Virus record (IMG/VR): IMGVR_UViG_3300037067_008364
Span: 62,001 to 94,377 of that record
Length of the DNA stretch: 32,377 bases
Reading direction: 5' to 3' (one strand)
Origin: an uncultured virus (IMG/VR IMGVR_UViG_3300037067_008364)
Taxonomy: Duplodnaviria; Heunggongvirae; Uroviricota; Caudoviricetes
A program made the position numbers and the translations under genes. Positions 5,519 to 32,377 of the stretch are shown one piece after another. The notes beneath the pieces were generated by a model that made no database searches, was not told where the DNA came from, and was given only the letters and a program-made list of their open reading frames with translations. Every line of letters begins with the position of its first letter. The first letter of the stretch is position 1.

Positions 5519-8500
5519 ATGCCTGTCTTTAAAACCGATCTATCAAGACTCGCACAGATAGCGCGTGACCGTGAAGCAGAACTTCAACAGCAACAGCAGG
5601 CTGATGAACAGATTATAGGCGTACAGCCGCAGGACATGCTTAATGTTCCATCGACAAACCAAATCTATGAGCCGTTCACATATGGCGAATTAGGCAGGGA
5701 TGTAGCAAGTTCAATCGGTGCTCAGGTCAAGTCTATAGGTTATCGTGCAATAATGCCTTCTATTGATGAAGATTTCACGCAAACTTCTCCGATGGAACGC
5801 AAGGTTATGAAACTTGACCGCACAACTGAAGAGTTTGTAAAACGGTATTCGCAACCTGATGTTCCCCGCGCAATTCAGATACTTGCAAATGAGGTAGTCC
5901 CTAACCTTGGATACTCTCTCGGTATGATGGGCGCTACTGCTCCCGGTGCTGTAGCTGGCGGAGTAGCTGGAAGTGTGCTTGGTGGAGTACTTGGTGGGCC
6001 TGCCGGTGCTGTTGCAGGTAAAATCGTAGGAAGCACTATTGGTGGTCTTGCTACCGGTGTCCCCGGAGGATTGAAGGTAGTAGGTCGTCAGAAAATGGAC
6101 GAGATTGTTGATAGCATCAAACAGCGCGTTGAACCTCAGATAGGACGCAAACTTAACGATACAGAACTCAAGAACATCATTGCATACGGTGATTACGTAA
6201 ACGCTGCAAAAGGCACTGCAAATTGGGAAGTTTACCCTGAGGTTGCCGGAGACCTGCTTGCATTCGGTATAGGTAGTTTTGTCTTCAGCAGTAAAATAGC
6301 CCAGAGTCTTGTAGGGAAAGTTGCATCGAAAGGCGTTGGGAAGGTTCTGACAACAGGTGCCCCGGGAGTTGCCACCAAAGGCGCTCTTACAATGCTCGGC
6401 ACACAGCTTACAGAACAGGGTACAGAGCTTCCCACTAACTACAATCAGTCAAAGATAGATTACGAAATAGGACTGCGCGATACTCCTCCTACATGGACTG
6501 GTACCTTCAAGGAACAGTTCCGTCCTGTTGCTCTTACCACTATGATTATGGGCGGTACTATCGGTGGTGCAGGTGCACTGCATGGAGCTCTGACGAAGAA
6601 GCAGGACAACCAGACGAACATGCTTGAGGACGAGAAGGCTGTTGACGTTGCCAAACAAACTGTTACAAAAGAGATGGAAACAAAACTCAAGGTTGAAAAT
6701 ATATATTCAAAGACAGTTGATACGCTTCTTGATACACGCGACCTTGCTGCTGTCGAAGATATTCTCAAGCACACTACAGATACTGAACATAAGGTTGGTA
6801 TTCAACGAGCTATCGACGAGTACAAAGCTCTTGTCGAATCAGGCAGACTGTTCCCAGATGAAATAGCCATGGCTGAACAGCGCGGTATTGCGCCTCAGGA
6901 GAAGCGTATCGAACGCGCGTACCTGTATGATTACCTTACTGAAGACGAACTCAAATCAATCCCGCAGGAAGAAGTTAACAAGCTTTACGAACAGCGTCGC
7001 ACTCAGGATGAGATAGATCGTAACGATGCAGTCAAGAAGAATGTCGCGGATTATGATTTGCTGAAGCAGGATTTGCAGGTTCGTGAACAGGAATCTAAAG
7101 CACAGTCTCATAAATTTGAGAACGATTATAAGAAACTCGGGAAAGGGCATCGCAAGGCAATAAAACTGTTTGATGCGATGATTAAAGACGGCACCATGCT
7201 TCCGGTTCACCGTGAGATCTTCATGGAACTTACGAAGGATATGAGCGACAAGCATCTTGAGTCTCTCGATATCCAGAGCAATGCCAATCTTGATGTACCG
7301 GGCTCCGGGAAAACTACACTCGGAAGATTCACAATGGTAGAAAACAAAGAGACCGGAGAAGTTACGCCTACCATATTCATACGCAAGGCGCTTGCAAAGG
7401 AATACGCGAACCGTCTCATAGAAAAAATCCCGTTGCTGAAAGATGACGTTGACAAAACATCTGCGACAGCCGAAGCCATGTCTACATTCGCGCATGAACT
7501 TGGGCACTTCGGACGCATAGTTATTCTTCCTGAAGTTGATGCTGTTAACATATCCAATATCTATGACAGCATAGGTAAAGAGAATCTTAAGACATATCTG
7601 CTTGAACGGTTCAAGAATCTTGGATTCGATCCAAAACAATTGGACAGTGTGGCAGATCATTTCTCCAAGAACTTTGACGAGATGTTTTCGTTCCAATTCG
7701 CAGATTATACTCTCAATAATATCGTATCCGATCAGCGCATGGTTCCGTTCTTTGAACGCATTCTATTAAAACTCAAAGAGTGGCTTACTATTGCCAAACG
7801 TGACAAGACACCGATATCCTCAGAACTCAAACAGCTTGAACCGTACTTCAACCAGATTCTTTCCGAAGGCGCGATGGATGCTGTTGAAGCGATGAAGCAA
7901 AAGTATCTTGGTGGAGATGTTGGGACAGTACTTGGAAAGATACATGCGTTCTCTCCGTCGGTTACTATCGGGAATATTATCAATGAATACGTTGCCAGCG
8001 GTAAAACATCCGAGCTGTTGGGTCAGCTTGACGCGAAAGAGCGTTCAGAACTCAACCGCCGTCTAGGTAAGGCTGTTGTTCGTGATGCAAAGAATATCAA
8101 AGAAGGCGGTACACGCGAAGAATTCCCGAACCAGCAGATATCGCGCAAGAACAATGGTGCAGGATTCACGTATACCATCAAGACTCCTTGGGGTACTGTT
8201 ACATACAGAACTCGAAGTGGAAGATTTAATATCGAACCTGACACCGGGCTCGAAACCAAAGAAGAAGTTCAGGTTAAAGTTGAGGCCGAAGAGAAGGCTA
8301 AGGCAGAGGCAGAAGCTGCAAAACAACAGGCTGAAAAAGCCAAACAGGAAGAGGAAGCCAAGGCTAAGAAAGCCGAGGAAAAAGCGAAAGCTGTTGAGAA
8401 GACCAAGCCTGCGCCTAAGAAAAAACTGGAACCGATTAAAAAGGCTGAATCTAAACCTGTCAAGAAGATAGAGAAGAAGGTTGCGAAACAGCCAGAGTCG

Positions 8501-11500
8501 AAAACTAAACAGCCAGAGTCACAGCCAGAGTCAAAGAAAAAGATTGAGCCAAAAACCAAGCCCGTTAAGACCGAACCCAAAGTCGAACCTGTTAAAACAG
8601 AACCGGTAAAGCCCAAGGTACAACCTGTCGCCAAGTCAGAACGCGAAAAGATTATTAAAGAACTCAGGGATAATCCTATATCTGTTGCCAACACGCTTAT
8701 CGAAGGCCCTGTCGCATCCATGCTTGACATATACGGCGGAGCACCTGAAAAGTATGGAGGCACTATACAGAAATCATGGCTCAATACATTCAGGGTCGGG
8801 CTCAGTAAATGGGTTGACAAGAACGGTGGTACGCGAATCGGAAGCCCGAAGACGGGTTACCAGTACACGCTCACGCGTCCTTACGGTACACTGCATTACA
8901 ACGACAAGACTGGTGTGTGGAGCATTGACTTCCTCCCGGGGTTGATCAAGAAACAGAGCAAGGATAATGTGGTCAATGTTGTACATGATGGTATAGACAA
9001 TAATATGTCAATGGAGACAATTGAGTCTAATAATAAATTTGATGATGTTGGCAACCCTATCGCTCCTGTCGCCAATGCATCCCCTACCATGGATCAGCAT
9101 ACCGCATTCGACGCGCTTGAAAAACTTCGTCAACTCGCTCTCGGTGAAATGGAAAAGCCCAAAGCTGAGCAAGACCCTGTCATCATGGACGAATACGATA
9201 CCATTAACGAGTACGAATCAGCATACAAAGATGTCATGGACGAGGTTGCTGACTGGGCAAAGAGTTTCTTCAACCGTTCTGATTACGTTGATGACAACCG
9301 TCCTCAGGAAACATGGAAGGCTGCATGGTTCGGCTCTCCTGAAATAACCTACCGTGACGAAGCATCGAGGTATATGTATCTTGCTGCCCAGAGATACCCA
9401 GAAGACAAGACTGAAATATACAATTATATCATAGGTAAGGAATCAGGTTCCAAAACCGGCGAGCAACATCCAGATACCCTTACGCTTATGCGCAAGTTCA
9501 AGAAGAACAATGGCAAGTTGTATCAAAGGCTGAACCAGTTGCTTATCAATGCTGATGTCAATGGTTTGAATATAGGTTATTCATATCAACTGCTCGATGA
9601 AAACGGTAAGGTTGTCGGTCAAGCTGAAACTCGCGCAGAGGCAAAGGAAGCCGTTGCAAGCGCAAAGAACAAAGCAGTAGACTACGAACGTTATGTTGAT
9701 GAAGACAAACTGAAAAAGAACGGTCTCGCCACAAAGGAAGAACGCGATCTGTGGGAAAAAATCCGCACAATGGCTGACATGGATTTGCAGAGGAAGATAA
9801 TGACGCTCCAGCAGATTATCGACAGCAATGAAAACCGTGGGAAAAAAACACCGAAGTATACTGTCGTAGATGCAAAGGGGCGCGTCGTTGAAATCGACCT
9901 GCACAAACTTGTCAATATGATGGGTGACCTTAAGGAATGGTATTTTCCAAGACAGCGCAAGTTCAGCAAATATATGGTTATTGCGAAGAATGTTGACAAG
10001 GACGGTAATAATCTTACGCAGCCGTTCATGCAGTTCTACCGTTCAAAGATTGAAGCGCAGAAAGCTGTCAATACAATAAAGCGTAAAGGCGCGTCAATCA
10101 ACGGCAAGCGGATAAAGTATAAAGATGTACACTGGGAACGTTCGCGTCAGAATCCTGAGAACATGATTGGTGTATACGGCAAGATAAGTTCAATCGAAGC
10201 TGCGATAAGCAGTGCCGTAGAACACATGAGCAAAGCAATAGACAGACCGATGTACAAGAAACTGTCTGAAGTACCTGATATCAAATTCATATCAGACTAT
10301 GAATATACATTCAAGAAGGACTGGAAGGAACAAGGCAAGAAAGCTGGAGACAAAGAGAAACATTTTGTAATTTATACTCATGGCAATCCTTGGTATGGTG
10401 CGCTGATGTCGATGCCGGTTAAAGAGTTTTCAAAACGTTATTACGATGCCGACGAAGAAGCAATCCATTTTGTTAATCCTACCGGTAAGTTTGAAGATGC
10501 TGTCGTTGATATGATGAACAATGACCAGACACATATTGAAGACGTGCGCGACGAATTTGTAGCGTCTCTCGCAATTCATGTTGCTGATATGATTAAGTCA
10601 AGCAGTGGTCTCCGTTCGTCAATGATACGTCGTAAGGATGAGATAGGCAATAACGTCTGGGCTGGGTACGAGGAAGATCTTGTCAAATCATTCACTGAAA
10701 TGGCTCAGAAAACATCTTCAGGCGTTGCCAAGAGTCAGATGGCGCGCGACATGATGGATGCGCTTAATGGTACATATAATATCAGCCTACAAAACTTTGA
10801 AACAAATAAGGAACGGCGTGAGTGGATTCAGAAACACCGCATAGATCCATCTACGCAGACTGAAATGTATAATCATCGTCTTACGTACATAAAGCATATG
10901 CTTAAACCTCAGGATTTCGTAGATTCAATGGTTGGCACTGTAAAAATCATAGGTGCAATACGGTATCTAGGCGGATTCGTTTTTAATATAGGCGCGCCGT
11001 TTGTCAACCTTACATCGTTTATCACAACAGTACCACCTTCGATGAGTCACTTGCTCAACATGCCTTTGTCTTCCGTCCCAACATACGTTGCTCGTGGTAT
11101 AGACGCATATCGCGCATACAAGTTCAGTAAGAACCCAGACCTATCTCCCGGTGTCAAGCGTCTTATAGATTTTATCATACTTAAGGGGCAGCACGAACCT
11201 CAATTTCAGCGCGAATCGTTATCTCCTCTTAAAGGAAAACTTGGGCGAGGCACAGATAAATTCATGGAATACATGATGCTTGGATTCGGTACAAGTGAAA
11301 GTGTATTGCGTGTATCAACTATCGTCGGTTCATATATGTATCTTGAAGAACAGGCTCAGCAAGGTAAACTTACAGCCGATGTATTTGATGATATAATTAA
11401 AAAGAGTAACCTGTATCCCGGAGGAAAGTTTGATGAAGTATTAAACATTAATAATCCAAGACATATGTCAACATTATTTGAAATAGCCAAGAACGTTTCT

Positions 11501-12448
11501 GATAGGGCGCACGGCGTATATACAAAAGCATCAAAACCTCTAATAGTCCAGAAATTCAGACCTGCCGATATCATGCTCATGTATACTAAATTTCCGCATA
11601 CTGTTTTAATGAACATGTACGAATACGGATTCAAGGAAAAAGACGCGAAGAACTTTCTGTATCTCATGTTTGCTCCAATGCTTGTCGCAGGAATGGCAGC
11701 TAATCCTTTATATGTCGGTATCAAAGCAGTATTGAATCCTGTACTAAAGAAATTATTTGATTCCGATAACCCCGAAGAAGATTTTTATGAGTGGCTTGAA
11801 CAGGTTTCACCGCTTATGTCTACAGGATTCAGGCAGGGAACCATGGGTATGGCTGGCGTTGATATATCTGGTTCACTTGGTATAGAGATACCGTCTCTTC
11901 AGAACTCTGTACCTGTTGCTTTTGCCAAAGATTTCGCATTTATAGCAGAAGCAATGATGGAAGGTCAATGGGGACTTGTAGCAGAGAAGGCTCCTATCAT
12001 GCCTAGATTCGCATCACAGGTAATGAAGGCATTACGTGAACATGAACAGGGCATTGTAAATCCGCGCGGTACTCCTGTATTCTATGAGGATGAGCAGATT
12101 CGTCCTACTGACGCTGAAGCAATAACTCAGAGTCTTGGGTTGCGTCCGGCAAGGATAGCGCGTCTGCGCGAAAAAGAATATGAAGCCCGCAGGCTCGAAG
12201 CAGAGTACACAAAGCGCAGAAGCCGTGTATCGTCCATGTTCAAACGGTTCTTTGAACTTCCGCCAGAAAAACAGAGCCGTGAAAAGCTTGAACGCATATT
12301 GGCAGATGTTGCAGATTACAATGACGACGTTATCAGGCGTAACGTTCGTGTTCCGCTTATAACAGGCGATTCATTACGCAAGAATGTCATACGCGCATTC
12401 ACTCCTCCGAAACGGGAACGATTGCGCAAGCAGGCTAATGAAAAATAA
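5519..12448 (+). CDS. Giant ejection/polyvalent protein with HExxH zincin-like metallopeptidase and PLxRFG-like region
   Basis: 2309 aa; N-terminal Gly-rich hydrophobic hairpins; AHELGHF at 7490-7510 with downstream DEMFS; K/E/P linker; WYFPRQRKFSKY near 9940; hydrophobic C-terminal helices. Confidence 0.65.
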   Translation: MPVFKTDLSRLAQIARDREAELQQQQQADEQIIGVQPQDMLNVPSTNQIYEPFTYGELGRDVASSIGAQVKSIGYRAIMPSIDEDFTQTSPMERKVMKLDRTTEEFVKRYSQPDVPRAIQILANEVVPNLGYSLGMMGATAPGAVAGGVAGSVLGGVLGGPAGAVAGKIVGSTIGGLATGVPGGLKVVGRQKMDEIVDSIKQRVEPQIGRKLNDTELKNIIAYGDYVNAAKGTANWEVYPEVAGDLLAFGIGSFVFSSKIAQSLVGKVASKGVGKVLTTGAPGVATKGALTMLGTQLTEQGTELPTNYNQSKIDYEIGLRDTPPTWTGTFKEQFRPVALTTMIMGGTIGGAGALHGALTKKQDNQTNMLEDEKAVDVAKQTVTKEMETKLKVENIYSKTVDTLLDTRDLAAVEDILKHTTDTEHKVGIQRAIDEYKALVESGRLFPDEIAMAEQRGIAPQEKRIERAYLYDYLTEDELKSIPQEEVNKLYEQRRTQDEIDRNDAVKKNVADYDLLKQDLQVREQESKAQSHKFENDYKKLGKGHRKAIKLFDAMIKDGTMLPVHREIFMELTKDMSDKHLESLDIQSNANLDVPGSGKTTLGRFTMVENKETGEVTPTIFIRKALAKEYANRLIEKIPLLKDDVDKTSATAEAMSTFAHELGHFGRIVILPEVDAVNISNIYDSIGKENLKTYLLERFKNLGFDPKQLDSVADHFSKNFDEMFSFQFADYTLNNIVSDQRMVPFFERILLKLKEWLTIAKRDKTPISSELKQLEPYFNQILSEGAMDAVEAMKQKYLGGDVGTVLGKIHAFSPSVTIGNIINEYVASGKTSELLGQLDAKERSELNRRLGKAVVRDAKNIKEGGTREEFPNQQISRKNNGAGFTYTIKTPWGTVTYRTRSGRFNIEPDTGLETKEEVQVKVEAEEKAKAEAEAAKQQAEKAKQEEEAKAKKAEEKAKAVEKTKPAPKKKLEPIKKAESKPVKKIEKKVAKQPESKTKQPESQPESKKKIEPKTKPVKTEPKVEPVKTEPVKPKVQPVAKSEREKIIKELRDNPISVANTLIEGPVASMLDIYGGAPEKYGGTIQKSWLNTFRVGLSKWVDKNGGTRIGSPKTGYQYTLTRPYGTLHYNDKTGVWSIDFLPGLIKKQSKDNVVNVVHDGIDNNMSMETIESNNKFDDVGNPIAPVANASPTMDQHTAFDALEKLRQLALGEMEKPKAEQDPVIMDEYDTINEYESAYKDVMDEVADWAKSFFNRSDYVDDNRPQETWKAAWFGSPEITYRDEASRYMYLAAQRYPEDKTEIYNYIIGKESGSKTGEQHPDTLTLMRKFKKNNGKLYQRLNQLLINADVNGLNIGYSYQLLDENGKVVGQAETRAEAKEAVASAKNKAVDYERYVDEDKLKKNGLATKEERDLWEKIRTMADMDLQRKIMTLQQIIDSNENRGKKTPKYTVVDAKGRVVEIDLHKLVNMMGDLKEWYFPRQRKFSKYMVIAKNVDKDGNNLTQPFMQFYRSKIEAQKAVNTIKRKGASINGKRIKYKDVHWERSRQNPENMIGVYGKISSIEAAISSAVEHMSKAIDRPMYKKLSEVPDIKFISDYEYTFKKDWKEQGKKAGDKEKHFVIYTHGNPWYGALMSMPVKEFSKRYYDADEEAIHFVNPTGKFEDAVVDMMNNDQTHIEDVRDEFVASLAIHVADMIKSSSGLRSSMIRRKDEIGNNVWAGYEEDLVKSFTEMAQKTSSGVAKSQMARDMMDALNGTYNISLQNFETNKERREWIQKHRIDPSTQTEMYNHRLTYIKHMLKPQDFVDSMVGTVKIIGAIRYLGGFVFNIGAPFVNLTSFITTVPPSMSHLLNMPLSSVPTYVARGIDAYRAYKFSKNPDLSPGVKRLIDFIILKGQHEPQFQRESLSPLKGKLGRGTDKFMEYMMLGFGTSESVLRVSTIVGSYMYLEEQAQQGKLTADVFDDIIKKSNLYPGGKFDEVLNINNPRHMSTLFEIAKNVSDRAHGVYTKASKPLIVQKFRPADIMLMYTKFPHTVLMNMYEYGFKEKDAKNFLYLMFAPMLVAGMAANPLYVGIKAVLNPVLKKLFDSDNPEEDFYEWLEQVSPLMSTGFRQGTMGMAGVDISGSLGIEIPSLQNSVPVAFAKDFAFIAEAMMEGQWGLVAEKAPIMPRFASQVMKALREHEQGIVNPRGTPVFYEDEQIRPTDAEAITQSLGLRPARIARLREKEYEARRLEAEYTKRRSRVSSMFKRFFELPPEKQSREKLERILADVADYNDDVIRRNVRVPLITGDSLRKNVIRAFTPPKRERLRKQANEK
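8280..8640 (+). repeat. Low-complexity K/E/A/P coding linker with three copies of CAGCCAGAGTC (QPES)
   Basis: EEKAKAEAE.., QPES x3 and PVKTEP x2 are visible in both DNA and protein. Confidence 0.8.
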
Positions 12449-21758: not shown

Positions 21759-21972
21759 TTAATATGCACAGCATTATACTTGATCCGTCGCGCTCCAGCG
21801 TTATAGTCCCTGCTTCACGAACAAGGTCTATGAACTCTTCAATTTTCTCAATATTTATTTCCCAGTGATAAGTATAATGAACAACATCGTACACAATATG
21901 TGCGCGACGGCACGGCTTCGTCTTTGACGCAAACTCTTCGCCTTTGCTGTAAACCAGAAAATCCATGCTCAC
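21742..21972 (-). CDS. Hypothetical protein
   Basis: 76 aa; GAGGAG SD; overlaps both neighbours. Confidence 0.55.
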   Translation of the reverse strand: MSMDFLVYSKGEEFASKTKPCRRAHIVYDVVHYTYHWEINIEKIEEFIDLVREAGTITLERDGSSIMLCILNENKE

Positions 21973-22460
21973 TCCTCGTTGTCATCTTGTTTGTCTGAAT
22001 TTCTGTGGTATATGCTTCTCAACACATCTCTAGACCACCCATCAACTGAACGTCTTGGTTCTATTCCACGTTTTTTAAGTTCATCACGTATCTTACTGTA
22101 ACTCATCCCCTGTTGTTTGAGTTCAATAATTAATTTGATTGTCATCTGTTCGTCGTACAGTTTGATAAGTTCATCCCTTCCACGCATACGAGCCCACCCG
22201 TACGGTGCCAAATATTCTTCAAGTTCACCGTATCCTTCCGACGTACATACGTCAATAATCTTGCTGTCAACATATTCATCTATGGCTTTGCTAAGGATTG
22301 ATATATTGGCAGATGTTTCTTCTTCATTCTTTCCGATAAGTTTATTCGATATAACATGCGGTATACCATACTTCACAGAAAATAAATGAATATCTGTCTT
22401 ATCCGCGAATCTGTTATTATCGTCATCGTATATGTCATCAACCACGTAATCATTTTTCAC
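21969..22460 (-). CDS. Protein with C-terminal recombinase-type HTH DNA-binding region
   Basis: LKQQGMSYSKIRDELKKRGIEPRR..GWSRDVLRSI resembles the HTH of serine-recombinase DNA-binding domains; no catalytic domain seen; GTG start. Confidence 0.55.
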   Translation of the reverse strand: MKNDYVVDDIYDDDNNRFADKTDIHLFSVKYGIPHVISNKLIGKNEEETSANISILSKAIDEYVDSKIIDVCTSEGYGELEEYLAPYGWARMRGRDELIKLYDEQMTIKLIIELKQQGMSYSKIRDELKKRGIEPRRSVDGWSRDVLRSIYHRNSDKQDDNEE

Positions 22461-28698: not shown

Positions 28699-28879
28699 GT
28701 GACATCCCTTCTCTTTCAATTGGTTTCTGTTTGCTTTCTGTATCCTTGATGTATATCCTGATTGCCGAGATGCACTCACTTACCTGTGGCATCGCTGATC
28801 TAGGGAATACAAGATAGCACAGACGTTCGAGTTCGTCTATGTATGCATCTACCTTAGGAGTTTTCTGATCGGTTATCAT
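28679..28879 (-). CDS. Hypothetical protein (66 aa)
   Basis: ATGA-coupled to the upstream gene. Confidence 0.5.
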   Translation of the reverse strand: MITDQKTPKVDAYIDELERLCYLVFPRSAMPQVSECISAIRIYIKDTESKQKPIEREGMSHDYSQN

Positions 28880-29277
28880 ATCTTTCCCATTTTTATACAG
28901 TGATTTATTCTATCAGTTAACTTACGATATGGTTCGCTTGTTACCTCTTTTTCATATCCAACATAAATACCATGCTCTTTCCACATGTATCTATAATCCA
29001 AATTACTTTCCAGTTTATGAAACCACACTAAATATCCATTATAATTACTATCTTCTTCATGATTAAGATCAAGTGAACGATCATGAATACGTAATGTGAT
29101 GTGTTGATTATCTTTACGTTTGATTGCTATGCCAAGAGCTCCCTGTTTCATCAGTCTATACAGTATATCGTCTATATCCATTGCTGTCGATATTGTTATA
29201 TCCTTTTCATATAGTGTTCTGGTATCTTTATTGACACCGAAGATGGTTATATTGTACGTGATAGTTTCAATAATCAT
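28876..29277 (-). CDS. Hypothetical protein, tandem paralog 3 of 3
   Basis: Shares TY.ITI, KQG..G, GY..W and W..H motifs with the two upstream genes. Confidence 0.7.
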   Translation of the reverse strand: MIIETITYNITIFGVNKDTRTLYEKDITISTAMDIDDILYRLMKQGALGIAIKRKDNQHITLRIHDRSLDLNHEEDSNYNGYLVWFHKLESNLDYRYMWKEHGIYVGYEKEVTSEPYRKLTDRINHCIKMGKI

Positions 29278-29675
29278 ATCGTCTTCTTTTGCTTTTTTAT
29301 GTATGATTTAATAAGAGATATTATTTCTTCTTCTCTATGAACATCGTTTACTCCTCCACCACCGACAAATATATAATGCTCTTTCCATCTCCAACAGTAT
29401 TGTAGATCATCTTTCAACATACTGTGCCATAAAGCATATCCATTCTCGTTAAATGTCCTTACTTCTCCATCGTTAGGATCATGTACTGTAACCGCAAATG
29501 CTCCATTATCTATACGATTGATTAATATCCCAACCGATCCTTGTTTGAACAATCTATCAAGCAATATATCTATATCCATACCAGCAGATAGAGTAATAGT
29601 TTTACTATTAACATGTTGGTATTGTTTGTTTATAGTAAGAATGGTTATATTGTATGTCACAATCTCTTTCTTCAT
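29274..29675 (-). CDS. Hypothetical protein, tandem paralog 2 of 3
   Basis: Same motifs; ATGA overlaps on both sides. Confidence 0.7.
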   Translation of the reverse strand: MKKEIVTYNITILTINKQYQHVNSKTITLSAGMDIDILLDRLFKQGSVGILINRIDNGAFAVTVHDPNDGEVRTFNENGYALWHSMLKDDLQYCWRWKEHYIFVGGGGVNDVHREEEIISLIKSYIKKQKKTI

Positions 29676-30043
29676 TTAACAGTCCCATCCTTTATACATT
29701 CACGGATACACTTTATCAATTTTCCGTAAGGATCAATATACCCACATTCTGCTTTATACCCAATATACAATCCATGACAACGCCACATGTTGCAGAACCC
29801 AAGATTATCATGTAACTTCTCAGACCATACCAGATATCCGCCTCTGTTAAAACCATCAACCATAAATGCCTTTTTGTCTTCTCTATTAATTGCAACTCCA
29901 AGTGCGCCCTGCTTCAAGCATCTGTCAATGATATCATCAACAGACATACTTGTTGTTAGTTTGATATCTTTCTCGGATACATCGTTGGTGATTCTGTCTA
30001 TCCCGAATATTGTTATATCGTATGTTACTTTTTCTGGATTCAT
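29672..30043 (-). CDS. Hypothetical protein, tandem paralog 1 of 3
   Basis: Same motifs; AAGGAG SD. Confidence 0.7.
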   Translation of the reverse strand: MNPEKVTYDITIFGIDRITNDVSEKDIKLTTSMSVDDIIDRCLKQGALGVAINREDKKAFMVDGFNRGGYLVWSEKLHDNLGFCNMWRCHGLYIGYKAECGYIDPYGKLIKCIRECIKDGTVK

Positions 30044-30052
30044 ATGTGATGA

Positions 30053-30382
30053 TTACTCCTTTGTGAAGTCGTCAATAGCTTCAAGTATTGTATCACGTAT
30101 GGTTTCTATATCATCAAGTTCGAGGATAGCATCCCATACTACTTTTCTCAACTTCTCCGCCACGTTCGGGTGCATCGTGGTTTCACGGAGATGTTTCATG
30201 GCATCGTTATGTTTAAATATCTTTATTCTGTCAATAGCCTTTACATCTCGGCTTAAACACCTGCACCCACCATTTGTTCTTTGTCCGTGTTTGTTTAATG
30301 CAAATCTACATAACGAATCACCGCAATCCATCAATTCACCTTTGTATTTTGTCATCTTACTCACCTCATTATAAAAATCCAT
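30053..30382 (-). CDS. Hypothetical protein with CGDSLC..TNGGCRC Cys motif
   Basis: 109 aa ORF; an alternative start at 30355 has a better SD (GAGGTG). Confidence 0.6.
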   Translation of the reverse strand: MDFYNEVSKMTKYKGELMDCGDSLCRFALNKHGQRTNGGCRCLSRDVKAIDRIKIFKHNDAMKHLRETTMHPNVAEKLRKVVWDAILELDDIETIRDTILEAIDDFTKE

Positions 30383-30493
30383 TTATACATATAACTTTCG
30401 TATGAATACCCAATATATAAGCAACATAAAGGCCGCAATCGTGATAATCTCAAGTAGACCATCTACCAATATCTGCGCGACTTCCGGTGTCAT
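30383..30493 (-). CDS. Small single-TM peptide (36 aa, MTPEVAQILV..RKLYV)
   Basis: Translated by hand; TGATG overlap and GAGG SD within the junction element. Confidence 0.55.
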   Translation of the reverse strand: MTPEVAQILVDGLLEIITIAAFMLLIYWVFIRKLYV

Positions 30494-30654
30494 CACTTCC
30501 TCGCTTTCGGATACGCCAGCCAAAATAGTTCACCGACAATTACATTCAATGTTTCCCTCTCGGCAACTCCCATGACTGGGAACCAAGAGAAGAATATCCA
30601 ATGGGTAACAGAGTGTAATCGCCGAAATATCCATAGTGTCAGGTAGCGTCTCAT
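30493..30654 (-). CDS. Small Trp/Phe-rich protein (53 aa) ending ..WLAYPKARK
   Basis: ATGA-coupled start at 30654; ends in a degenerate junction element read in frame. Confidence 0.5.
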   Translation of the reverse strand: MRRYLTLWIFRRLHSVTHWIFFSWFPVMGVAERETLNVIVGELFWLAYPKARK

Positions 30655-30875
30655 GATTTTACTTTCGGATATGGTAAATTGTTTTTTGCACGGCAATTAG
30701 GGCAGACATTATCGCCTATTCTACCAATAACATTAAATCTATTTGATGTGCCTTCATCGTAATAACCGTATACCCATCCGCCCTTGCTGTATTCAGCCCC
30801 ACAATTTTGACACCTTACGGTTCCTCTATATCTCGGATAAAGAATCTTATCAGGTTCAACATATGCCATTGTCAT
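30651..30875 (-). CDS. Small zinc-ribbon protein (CQNC..CPNC) ending ..NNLPYPKVKS
   Basis: Two CxxC pairs; preceded and followed by junction elements. Confidence 0.65.
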   Translation of the reverse strand: MTMAYVEPDKILYPRYRGTVRCQNCGAEYSKGGWVYGYYDEGTSNRFNVIGRIGDNVCPNCRAKNNLPYPKVKS

Positions 30876-30907
30876 CTTACTTTCCTTTCTCTTTCGGATA
30901 CGGCACG

Positions 30908-31105
30908 TTACATCGGCTCGTTGTTAGCATGACTTTCCGGGTTTGTAGAAAACCATCTAACATTGCCCGTTAGGGGGATAGTTCTGTTCTGTCCATTTGT
31001 AAGACGCATCCAAAGTATATGACCACCTTGTCTAACTTGACTGCATTCAAATATTTCAAGATAGCCATCCCACCATCTTACGTTTACAATAATAGATTCT
31101 TTCAT
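30908..31105 (-). CDS. Small hypothetical protein (65 aa)
   Basis: AAAGGA SD; its stop codon is the TAA of a junction element. Confidence 0.65.
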   Translation of the reverse strand: MKESIIVNVRWWDGYLEIFECSQVRQGGHILWMRLTNGQNRTIPLTGNVRWFSTNPESHANNEPM

Positions 31106-31134
31106 TTCTTTATCCTTTCACCGAATACGGCACG

Positions 31135-31290
31135 TTACAAGTCTCTTGTCATAAGTACAATTTGTATCAATGAAGCACTTACCATAAGCCACACACCAAC
31201 CATATTTGATTGCACCCAATAAACAACAATGTTTACAGTAAGCATCATCAGTACCCACCAATTAGCCATAAACAGAAGCATCCTCATCAT
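31135..31290 (-). CDS. Small hydrophobic two-TM protein (51 aa, MMRMLLF..MTRDL)
   Basis: Translated by hand; AAAGGA SD; its stop codon is the TAA of a junction element. Confidence 0.6.
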   Translation of the reverse strand: MMRMLLFMANWWVLMMLTVNIVVYWVQSNMVGVWLMVSASLIQIVLMTRDL

Positions 31291-31334
31291 CTTTATCCTT
31301 TCCGTGGGTAAGGCACGTTACCGTCATAAACAAA

Positions 31335-31421
31335 TTATTTCATGTCTTTTCCCAAAACGAACATACATGTTATGAGTATACCAAATCCAAAACCTGATAT
31401 AAATACGATTAAATACCACAT
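31335..31421 (-). CDS. Small single-TM peptide (28 aa, MWYLIVFISGFGFGILITCMFVLGKDMK)
   Basis: Translated by hand; AAAGGTGA SD. Confidence 0.55.
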   Translation of the reverse strand: MWYLIVFISGFGFGILITCMFVLGKDMK

Positions 31422-31453
31422 CTCACTCACCTTTTTCGGATACGGCACGTTAT

Positions 31454-31600
31454 TTACCTTGTTGCATTCCACGGTCTTGACCATTCACCATAAGCAATAA
31501 GTATAAACAAACAGAACAAAATTCTTGAAACCATTACTGGTAATATCCAAATCAAACGCCATAAAATAACATACCATGGTGCCAAATACTTTGTATCCAT
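31454..31600 (-). CDS. Small hydrophobic protein (48 aa, MDTKYLAPW..WNATR)
   Basis: Translated by hand; AAAGGTGA SD; stop lies 1 nt before a perfect junction element. Confidence 0.6.
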   Translation of the reverse strand: MDTKYLAPWYVILWRLIWILPVMVSRILFCLFILIAYGEWSRPWNATR

Positions 31601-31629
31601 CTCACTCACCTTTCCTCGGATACTGTGGT

Positions 31630-31926
31630 TCATTCCACTGTGTCTAAAAGCACATGAATAGCATTTATCGCAGCAACCTTGTCTTGCTCAGGAGCTTCGG
31701 CTATCCTTAACAAAAATTCCATCTGCTCCAATTCTTCCCTTGCGCCTGCACCCACAAGACCAACCAACGCACTACGCAATTTTTTTATTGTTTCTTCCGC
31801 TTTCCGCATAGGATGTTTTTCACAAACCTTAATGTGTTCGGTAAGTATATCATTGTCCCATGCCGGGGTATCTTGCGGATATTCTTTACCACAATACACG
31901 CAAGTAAGTACGCGATTTTCTGACAT
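31630..31926 (-). CDS. C2HC zinc-finger plus coiled-coil protein (98 aa)
   Basis: CVYC..EHIKVCEKHP followed by a heptad coil. Confidence 0.7.
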   Translation of the reverse strand: MSENRVLTCVYCGKEYPQDTPAWDNDILTEHIKVCEKHPMRKAEETIKKLRSALVGLVGAGAREELEQMEFLLRIAEAPEQDKVAAINAIHVLLDTVE

Positions 31927-32087
31927 TATTTTTCATCCTTTCTGTTTAACGTGCCACAAATTTGGCACTCATAAAAAGAGGTATACGGGAATCGAACGTG
32001 TGATGTCTTTGCATCACACTTTTTACAGTACATGGTTATGCGCTTCATACCCGCACCAAACACTGTTTTAGATTGTACTATCTTCAT
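31926..32087 (-). CDS. Small zinc-ribbon protein (53 aa, CKKC..H..CQICG)
   Basis: Translated by hand; GGAGG SD; TAATG overlap with the next gene. Confidence 0.65.
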   Translation of the reverse strand: MKIVQSKTVFGAGMKRITMYCKKCDAKTSHVRFPYTSFYECQICGTLNRKDEK

Positions 32088-32089
32088 TA

Positions 32090-32377
32090 TTATTTCCTCC
32101 CCGGATACGGCACGTTACCGTCAGGCCAGAGTGCTTTGACCCATAACTGAGGGATAACTTTATTTTTCATGTGCCGGTTTATAAAGTCTAAAACTACTAT
32201 ATGACTGACTTCATTTTTAAATATTTTGTCATTGTTTATGCCATACCCACTATTATCATTCCTTAACTTAATGCCATTGTTTGTTTTATATGCGATAAAT
32301 GGAATGCTATCAACCTCAACCGTGAAGTATTTAAGCACTTCATCGGCAGAGGCTTTGGTAAATACTCTGATATGACC
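32090..32377 (-). CDS. Hypothetical protein (5' end probably outside window) ending ..PDGNVPYPGRK
   Basis: Frame is open to the window edge; C-terminus is encoded by a perfect junction element. Confidence 0.6.
   Translation of the reverse strand, partial: GHIRVFTKASADEVLKYFTVEVDSIPFIAYKTNNGIKLRNDNSGYGINNDKIFKNEVSHIVVLDFINRHMKNKVIPQLWVKALWPDGNVPYPGRK

Follow-up and report, generated by a model that had tools for sequence, protein, structure and literature searches.

Repeated start-proximal junctions in a small-gene array of an orphan tailed phage: a possible regulatory cassette that doubles as recombination homology

Why the same short sequence should stand between one small gene and the next, when the genes themselves are unrelated, is the question raised by the right-hand third (positions 62001-94377; 39% G+C) of the 94,377-bp IMG/VR virus record IMGVR_UViG_3300037067_008364. 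In this stretch of 32,377 nucleotides, which is referred to as the window throughout, an array of unrelated single small open reading frames (ORFs) is found, all in one orientation and with no promoter signal above chance, and most of the junctions between them carry a conserved 16-nt core ahead of a purine-rich Shine-Dalgarno (SD) tract and the ATG of the next gene. The explanation that we prefer, with confidence that stays somewhat short of even, is that this element is a start-associated regulatory junction cassette, which doubles as homology for recombination. The function of the core, the trans-acting factor that would read it and recombination at the copies in this phage are all things that we infer, and the observations leading to them are presented in the following together with the explanations that compete with ours.

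The consensus of the core is TAACGTGCCGTATCCG, and individual copies are designated by the window position of their first base on the minus strand. The first-pass annotation had described the core or a variant of it at eight of nine consecutive junctions, and this count holds, with three exact copies, one copy that matches at 15/16 positions, one at 13/16 and three at 10-11/16 (Table 1). At all copies, the A of the next ATG is 27-35 nt away from the first base of the core, as had been reported; the first triplet indeed forms the stop codon of the upstream gene at 31632 (TGA), 31137 (TAA) and 30910 (TAA), and the core is found in frames 0, 1 and 2 relative to the upstream gene. Five matches with at most three mismatches are present in the window compared to 0.22 expected, and a count of five was reached in 0 of 100 shuffles. 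A scan of the full genome likewise bears out that the motif is scarce away from the junctions: matches of at least 13/16 occur only at five sites of the array, the six occurrences of the 9-mer TAACGTGCC, five of them on the minus and one on the plus strand, are all within the array, and among the 12-mers that occur at least three times in the genome, only those of the core are not AT-rich scatter. All eight copies are located on the minus strand and at junctions, and none is found in structural genes or elsewhere in the whole genome.

The position of the core relative to the start of the next gene is equally regular. The purine-rich SD tract directly abuts the core, and 11-19 nt separate the end of the core from the next ATG. 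By match count, the weak copies J3, J8 and J9 are not significant, since the minus strand of the genome contains 129 matches of at least 10/16; they become significant through their fixed register at the SD tract and through their intact 3' half, (G)TATCCG, which all three of them retain. The upstream gene stops before the core at J4 and J5, and it reads through the core at J1, J8 and J9, resulting in the tails PYPGRK, PYPKVKS and AYPKARK. It was considered whether the core might simply encode a conserved C-terminal peptide, as seen in the PYP tails of g1, g8 and g9; this was ruled out, as three reading frames are used and three copies begin with a stop codon. Replication-origin iterons, a pac site, a Chi-like site and a restriction site were set aside as well, the copies being irregularly spaced (130-665 nt), tied to the SD tract and local. 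Pairing of GTATCC with GGATAC or GGATAT just after the ATG can be drawn for J3 and J8 only and was taken as chance. At J2, where the 9-mer is inverted, it lies 20 nt before the ATG of g3 and could pair on the mRNA with any forward copy over 9 bp; the amino acids encoded there are CGTLN.

Table 1. Junctions (J1-J10) and genes (g1-g11) of the small-gene array, with positions in the window
Feature	Position	Strand	Description
J1	32102..32117	-	exact core, 16/16; g1 reads through (tail ending GNVPYPGRK, then stop); g2 ATG 30 nt from first base
J2	31947..31955	+	between g2 and g3; no forward core; inverted 9-mer TAACGTGCC inside g2 3' end; leader resembles J5/J6 type
J3	31617..31632	-	TGAACCACAGTATCCG, 10/16; 3' half 7/7; TGA is g3 stop
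J4	31437..31452	-	exact core, 16/16
J5	31305..31320	-	TAACGTGCCTTACCCA, 13/16; 5' half 9/9, 3' half changed
J6	31122..31137	-	TAACGTGCCGTATTCG, 15/16; TAA is g6 stop
J7	30895..30910	-	exact core, 16/16; TAA is g7 stop
J8	30666..30681	-	CAATTTACCATATCCG, 11/16; 3' half 6/7; inside g8 3' end (tail ending NLPYPKVKS, then stop)
J9	30508..30523	-	TTGGCTGGCGTATCCG, 11/16; 3' half 7/7; inside g9 3' end (tail ending LAYPKARK, then stop)
J10	30353..30385	-	no core; leader GAGGTGAGTAAGATG of J3/J4 type; precedes probable g11 start (30355)
g1	32090..32377	-	5' end open at contig end; at least 95 aa
g2	31926..32087	-	53 aa; two CxxC pairs, zinc-ribbon-like by eye
g3	31630..31926	-	98 aa; very large phage protein family
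g4	31454..31600	-	48 aa, hydrophobic
g5	31335..31421	-	28 aa, hydrophobic
g6	31135..31290	-	51 aa, hydrophobic
g7	30908..31105	-	65 aa; widespread conserved small phage protein family; J6 and J7 on either side
g8	30651..30875	-	74 aa; sub-threshold zinc-ribbon Pfam matches
g9	30493..30654	-	53 aa; start overlaps g8 stop (ATGA)
g10	30383..30493	-	36 aa, hydrophobic; start overlaps g9 stop (TGATG)
g11	30053..30382	-	100-109 aa (start 30355 or 30382); first gene past the array

The repeat described in the first-pass annotation is thus real, but the unit that is repeated is more than a 16-nt junction element: it comprises the whole intergenic segment of around 35-45 nt, and the segments form one family. 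When the sequences ahead of the ten starts were aligned locally and the alignments z-scored, similarity was found to extend from the core through the ATG for J4/J7 (34-38 nt, z 13.6), J5/J6 (z 9.3) and J3/J4 (z 9.1); further alignments were obtained for J6/J7 (z 7.8) and J7/J9 (z 6.9), and the alignment of J1 with J5 (44-47 nt, z 7.9) takes in six extra nucleotides, TGACGG, upstream of the core. The junction units are related by descent through copying. Their leaders fall into subtypes, GGTGAGTRAGATG at J3, J4 and J10 and AAAGGATAAAGA at J5 and J6, both of which are found only within the array when the genome is searched, and a leader similar to the second subtype is present at J2. Adjacent junctions share a leader subtype, so that g4 is flanked by one subtype twice and g6 by another twice, and the hydrophobic g6 and the following g7, a member of a conserved soluble family, are plainly unrelated. 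The leader of J3, AGGAAAGGTGAGTGAGATG, is nearly identical to that of J4. The "5' half" of J3 is a poorer match to the core than to the sequence that precedes J4, and upstream of J3 and J4 another 21 nt are 76% alike, which g3 and g4 read in different frames. Matches of the quality of this 21-nt similarity are common among chance two-copy families in the same output, and it was counted only for its colinearity with the homology of the leaders; on this alignment, J3 corresponds to a J4 from which 14 nt between two GTA triplets are missing.

The core is kept far better than the leader. Over J1, J4, J5, J6 and J7, only four differences are found in 80 core positions, whereas the leaders differ by indels and substitutions, and J1 and J4 can be aligned over the core only. 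Uniform decay of duplicated DNA is no explanation for leaders that have diverged next to a perfect block of 16 nt: either selection acts on the sequence of the core, or the core is the point at which recombination joins units with leaders from different sources, or both. The first-pass annotation had interpreted the element as a recombination site, which shuffles single-gene units and supplies each of them with a stop codon and a ribosome-binding site, or alternatively as an operator or processing site repeated per gene. The anatomy behind this interpretation stands, namely the stop codon in three copies, the location 5' of the SD tract and the unrelated single genes. In our view, an operator or processing site that acts gene by gene would be the better account of a core that is kept so much better than its leader.

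A different explanation of the same pattern, which we regard as unlikely, is that the junctions are pure recombination linkers or scars, i.e. functionless copies left by insertion or duplication, whose likeness is kept up by gene conversion or because they have spread recently. A relationship by descent along the entire junction, in which extensions and indels are specific to each pair, would be expected of such scars, and so would the leader subtypes shared by neighbours on both sides of g4 and of g6, the loss of either half of the core and the confinement of the element to 1.7 kb. In addition, an exchange between two other phages, which is described below, has junction repeats at its bounds, and recombinases of the single-strand annealing protein (SSAP) type are said, in the accessible parts of two reports, to recombine short, divergent sequences (PMC5499656, PMC8093625). 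However, with three copies at 16/16 and one at 15/16 next to diverged leaders, and with J1 and J4 alike in the core alone, uniform neutral decay does not fit the data, and gene conversion of exactly 16 nt beside a diverging leader is hard to picture.

Readily recombining direct repeats should furthermore delete genes, but the array is identical in four sequencing runs dated 2018 to 2025. These runs (X1-X4) stem from groundwater, landfill and wastewater and belong to four studies, and the pieces of the array that they contain are 100% identical; one of the four is probably the source sample, and the runs labelled RNA-Seq are probably DNA. The comparison was made with assembled contigs, and parts that are uncovered in X2-X4 carry no meaning. 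On the scale of these runs, to which the observation refers rather than to older events, the array is stable. In g1, contigs of X1 and X2 join window positions 32144 and 32310, thereby omitting 165 nt in frame for g1, with 30 letters on the shorter side; this skip may be a deletion variant or a replaced segment. Two other joints, 27004>31703 (34 foreign letters; X1, depth 3.7) and 27765>28990 (side of 21), were rejected as probable cross-matches from other organisms.

Where the genes between the junctions come from can be asked for g3 and g7. Family matches are absent for nine of the 11 array proteins, and none of the 11 has a match above the curated threshold in PHROG or Pfam. For g7, 67 homologous clusters with up to 86% identity were found, as well as 56 viral loci (L017-L072), which lie on very different viral contigs of 5-237 kb. 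The family is around 65 aa long and has 18 invariant columns, for instance in VRW..DGY.E.F and VRW...PESH, and its clusters are labelled viral hypothetical proteins in the Atlas. When 31 proteins of the minus-strand block of the window were compared by tblastn with the 56 loci, only g7 gave matches, in addition to the helicase in one locus, and the DNA similarity between most pairs of g7 loci is confined to the ORF itself; g7 is, on this evidence, a gene that travels alone among very different phages. The g3 family is much larger, with 1647 representative clusters at E<=0.001, 330 at E<=1e-10 and 72 viral loci (L073-L144); it has a zinc-binding look (CxxC...C..H) and in many cases makes up the C-terminal portion of proteins with 140-400 aa. 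Only one g3 locus, L107, also carries a g7 homologue. Membership of g3 and g7 in separate families agrees with the earlier statement that the flanking genes are mutually unrelated, and the family searches show a foreign origin for both. The core is found at either flank of g7 in 0 of the 56 loci, and the 72 g3 loci contain 0 matches with at most two mismatches and two scattered ones with three mismatches. Since other loci with g3 or g7 do not have the core, it belongs to the array of this phage and not to the imported genes.

Single imported genes behind a recurring boundary bring integrons to mind. Integron cassettes with attC sites are promoterless single genes in one orientation with a recurring boundary element, which forms an imperfect palindrome or hairpin and is used by an integrase. 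The array shares with them the unrelated promoterless single genes, the single orientation and the recurring boundary. An integron-like gene-capture system, in which a dedicated recombinase crosses over in the 16-nt core and inserts single-gene circles, would be consistent with the sharp 5' edge at TAAC, a core that is perfect between unrelated genes and followed by leaders as if they were cassette-specific, the stop codon inside three copies and the import of g7 and g3 as single genes. Its characteristic components are missing, however. That there is no attC-like palindrome had already been stated and can be upheld, as the junctions contain no inverted repeats, folds of single junctions have no common structure and RNAalifold over the eight copies gave 0 pairs. 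The lack of an integrase, noted previously for the window, now extends to all six frames of the whole 94-kb genome, in which the tyrosine integrase domain PF00589 has 0 matches (controls matched in 14/14 genomes) and no resolvase domain is present. All that was detected is a 163-aa ORF (21969-22460) with a sub-threshold match to the "Recombinase" domain of serine integrases (20.8 bits at a cut-off of 21.1) and a match to phrog_95. In addition, the boundary is not the integron core, no pool of other core-bearing elements was found in IMG/VR, metagenome contigs, GTDB genomes or the 56 g7 loci, and the homology reaches a variable distance past the core instead of ending at precise edges. This variable extent argues for homologous or short-homology recombination rather than for an integron-like site-specific system, which we consider very improbable here.

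Junction repeats in other phages are informative with respect to recombination. Loci with analogous arrays came from the searches for g7 and g3 homologues. In L056, L059 and L061, a junction motif, given as GAGCCGCCGAAGGAGGAAA or GAGCCGCCGAAGGAGG, precedes three to four consecutive small genes and is read by the upstream genes as an EPPKEE tail. L107 (122-1745) contains four copies of its repeat, given as GCTCTCGAAGGAGGTnAAGATG or GCTCTCGAAGGAGGT, one of which precedes the g7 homologue, and L098 (3978-4660) contains three copies of GAGGAAATCAC. A junction of around 70 nt with a consensus TTGACA-17-TATAAT promoter, i.e. of the classical kind, occurs in four copies in L105 (3100-5950). L056 and L061 share a two-gene block of 540 bp (L056:4647-5186 and L061:4647-5186) with 96% identity, whereas the flanks are 22-46% identical; its start coincides with the first base of a junction copy, and its end falls within a second copy. 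Apart from this block, no relationship between L056 and L061 is seen over 10 kb, and L059 is 99.99% identical to L061. The first-pass annotation had proposed to look for gene gain or loss with breakpoints at the element, and this block has such a breakpoint pattern, albeit in another lineage. Of 128 comparison loci, 16 were picked out by a crude screen for junction repeats; as several of the 16 turned out to be tandem repeats or paralogous N-termini (L042, L049), the number is thus no frequency of true junction repeats but a hint that the phenomenon is not rare.

The element belongs to a known class of start-associated or junction repeats; it combines the logic of the promoter early stem-loop elements (PeSLs) with the position of the start-associated sequences (SAS) and is a member of neither. 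In the literature, only these two lines were found for this kind of core, which is no proof of absence in print. According to the accessible part of PMC3203893, the SAS of Cluster K mycobacteriophages is a 13-bp sequence, GGGATAGGAGCCC, which contains the SD core (AGGAG), is located 3-7 bp from the start, occurs in 11-19 copies that cover half a genome, and has been conserved by many related phages. A role in translation initiation or as a binding site has been proposed for it; the accessible parts of PMC3203893 and PMC12699233 present this function as unproven and, in 2025, as still unverified. As far as these parts go, the junction core and SAS have in common that they are short, asymmetric repeats in one orientation just upstream of the starts of non-structural genes of different families, that the upstream stop codon is sometimes located inside the repeat, and that the repeat is missing from the remainder of the genome, which for SAS holds for the host too. 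In contrast to SAS, the core is 16 nt long and of other sequence, contains no SD core and is located on the 5' side of the SD, with 11-19 nt between its end and the start; its eight copies are found in 1.7 kb of one orphan phage, and nothing like the inverted repeat of the extended SAS (ESAS) accompanies it.

The PeSLs of T4-type phages consist of a strong sigma-70 promoter and a stem-loop terminator, and PeSL-mediated exchange as well as mini-circles were shown experimentally and by comparison of sister phages, as reported in the accessible parts of PMC2839356 and PMC4122927. To the extent described there, PeSLs resemble the junctions of the array in being intergenic cassettes of a plastic early region, which reach from the stop codon of one gene to the SD and start of the small ORFan that follows, and recombination between PeSL copies is the proposed or demonstrated route by which genes are inserted, deleted or replaced. 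Unlike PeSLs, the junctions studied here have neither a sigma-70 promoter nor a stem-loop terminator. Sigma-70-like promoter sites are present at chance level (21 compared to 20.9 expected), none of them coincides with the core, and the core itself has no -35/-10 pattern; three terminator-like sites were detected compared to 1.9 expected, none of which is located at a junction, and Rfam gave no match in the array.

The core could still be a promoter for a phage-specific transcription system, which would provide each small gene with its own transcript. A block of around 16 nt, followed by G/A-rich sequence and the SD, would resemble T7-type promoters in its layout, and repeated early promoter arrays exist, as seen for the four TTGACA-17-TATAAT copies of L105 and, in the accessible part of PMC2839356, for PeSLs. 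However, no matching polymerase or sigma factor was recognised. The T7-type RNA polymerase domain PF00940 has 0 matches in six frames, a weak negative, as the control genomes were unable to give a match; no RNA polymerase match was obtained among 105 ORFs scanned with PHROGs or 44 scanned with Pfam, and domains of sigma-70 region 2 or 4 are absent from the six frames of the whole genome. The DxDGD motif is missing from six large proteins that were checked, including the proteins of 2309, 1319 and 1184 aa, for which no match assigns a function. Together with the chance level of sigma-70-like sites and with a core that is translated within three upstream genes, this makes a promoter the least probable of the explanations considered, and one to which we give hardly any weight.

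Repeated asymmetric sites are also known as stoperators from Cluster A mycobacteriophages such as L5, in which sites of 13-16 bp in short intergenic spaces are spread genome-wide and bound by the lysogenic repressor. A DNA operator of the stoperator type would mean that the asymmetric 16-bp sites are targets of a DNA-binding protein of phage or host, by which transcription of the array is blocked or modulated. Like stoperators, the copies are asymmetric, located in short intergenic spaces and in a single orientation relative to transcription, and the inverted 9-mer of J2 is still a site on DNA, though not on RNA. Stoperators are moreover named as a contrast case in the accessible part of PMC3203893. 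On the other hand, a DNA operator would not have to keep its distance from the SD constant, and the sites, rather than being distributed genome-wide, all fall within 1.7 kb. No repressor-like gene was recognised with PHROG or Pfam apart from a sub-threshold MarR match in a 178-aa ORF, and as no integrase is present, there is no sign of a lysogeny module. A DNA operator is for these reasons decidedly improbable.

In the preferred explanation, the regulatory junction cassette, the array would be a polycistronic stretch of small early accessory genes, each of which would be preceded by a cassette of an optional stop codon, the 16-nt core, a purine-rich SD leader and the ATG. The core would act as a linear, unstructured cis-signal, which is present in one orientation just 5' of each ribosome-binding site. 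A trans-acting factor would most likely bind the core on the mRNA and set or shut off translation gene by gene, or an endonuclease would cut there; the signal could accordingly be a translational operator, an enhancer or a cleavage site. The strict orientation, the abutment to the SD tract, the absence of a fold and of a promoter and the precedent of SAS all argue for a linear cis-signal that is read in connection with translation initiation. Per-gene cis-signals on early polycistronic mRNAs, which act on translation or processing, are known from phages, for instance the T4 RegA and RegB targets at ribosome-binding sites and the T7 RNase III sites between early genes. The T7 sites are hairpins, RegB cuts within GGAG and RegA sites overlap the start codon, whereas the sites in the array consist of a conserved 16-nt block 5' of the SD. 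At the same time, the direct repeats of around 16-45 nt could serve as short homologies for the Sak4-like annealing protein and the PD-(D/E)XK nuclease of the phage, whose genes are located a few kb downstream of the array, and single genes would then be gained, lost or exchanged by recombination at the junctions, in the manner of the PeSL cassettes of T4-type phages. Homologous or short-homology recombination is suggested by the descent through copying, the pair-specific extents of homology, the imported genes, the exchange between L056 and L061 and the presence of a Sak4-type protein together with a nuclease.

Several observations weigh against the regulatory cassette. No part of the core is universal, as J5 lacks the 3' half, J3, J8 and J9 lack the 5' half and J2 and J10 are coreless, so that not every gene can depend on a strict binding site. 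An element limited to 1.7 kb in a 94-kb genome could equally be the product of duplications that were purely local. No candidate for the trans-acting factor was identified, and to name the zinc-ribbon-like g2 and g8 would be guesswork. No rearranged variant was found either: contigs of three other metagenomes are identical and colinear across J3-J6 and J8-J10. Finally, the core occurs in no other phage, metagenome or genome that was searched, and conservation across relatives is the strongest argument for a function of SAS. The exact 16-mer has three single-copy matches in unrelated contexts in IMG/VR; followed by RRRR, it has five single-copy matches in metagenome contigs of 56-64% GC and three single matches in unrelated metagenome-assembled genomes among the GTDB genomes, all of which is chance level. 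A diverged relative of the phage was not found in the collections searched, neither with DNA nor with protein: blastn of 4.4 kb against GenBank phages gave no match, tblastn of the helicase reached at best 27% identity, tblastn of a 133-aa paralog encoded next to the array gave none, and searches for related loci with the 372-aa and 109-aa proteins gave none.

A bolder version of the same idea, which seems quite unlikely to us, is that the core is the working site of a dedicated virulent-phage system to build and regulate arrays of accessory genes. For gene capture, the core would be a crossover or annealing site, at which foreign single genes are slotted in and each of them is given a stop codon, a ribosome-binding site and a common control handle, by the Sak4-type machinery or another enzyme and without an integrase. 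For master regulation, one small phage protein would read the core on the mRNA and switch the array gene by gene. If this were true, the junction repeats of L056/L061, L107 and L098 would be other "dialects" of the same strategy.

The placement of the array in the genome is as follows. The record is a tailed phage, in which PHROG and Pfam scans detected a terminase, a head protein, tail proteins and an endolysin, and furthermore an anaerobic ribonucleotide reductase and endonuclease genes of the HNH (two) and LAGLIDADG (one) types. On its minus strand, the window contains a block for replication and recombination, which encodes a helicase, the Sak4-like/AAA_24 annealing protein, the PD-(D/E)XK nuclease and a metallophosphoesterase-like nuclease. 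The array forms the upstream end of this block, in which all genes are on the minus strand; it consists of the ten small ORFs g1-g10 (28-98 aa, with g1 cut at the contig end), followed by g11 and by three tandem paralogs. These paralogs (window 28876-30043, minus strand; 133, 133 and 123 aa) are located directly downstream of the array and have M..E..TYNITIFG-like starts; they have no match in PHROG or Pfam, and a search of 5.8 billion proteins returned only the protein of the window itself. Minus-strand ORFs are present near both ends of the record (window position 32377 and the record start), and an ORF starting with MILDIICTHGFCADCM at the record start runs into the record end, shifted by one base relative to the frame of g1. 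In run X1, a contig reaches 2.5 kb further than the end of the window. The record is probably a circular or permuted genome that was opened inside g1, with one or a few bases perhaps missing.

Some further genes of the phage are unusual. At genome positions 51950-53417 (L015:11950-13417), the similarity of a 220-aa ORF to major head protein profiles is limited to their first half, and the LAGLIDADG homing endonuclease gene follows this ORF; the capsid gene thus looks interrupted by an intron- or intein-like insert. A 1086-aa ORF at genome positions 41371-44631 (L015:1371-4631) matches portal or head-tail adaptor profiles in its first half and the terminase large subunit in its second half, which would point to either a fusion or a missed stop codon or frameshift. 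The 2309-aa ORF, located in the tail region (window 5519-12448, plus strand), has no sequence match in PHROG, Pfam or PDB; the 1319-aa ORF has none in PHROG or Pfam, and the 1184-aa ORF has only a weak match to a tail-protein PHROG over around 60 residues.

Phages typically keep their functions for host takeover and counter-defence in arrays of tiny early genes, whose turnover is fast. How single genes can enter and leave a phage genome while expression is kept is understood only for a few model groups, such as those with PeSLs, and SAS is still unexplained. The array described here represents a third design, which has no promoter and no terminator but a conserved block adjoining the ribosome-binding site; it is a practical limit that the phage has no known host or relative. 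If the core is a regulatory operator, it would be a compact control element for each individual gene. The block recently exchanged between L056 and L061 and the repeats found in several unrelated environmental phages suggest that the use of junction repeats as recombination handles may be common.

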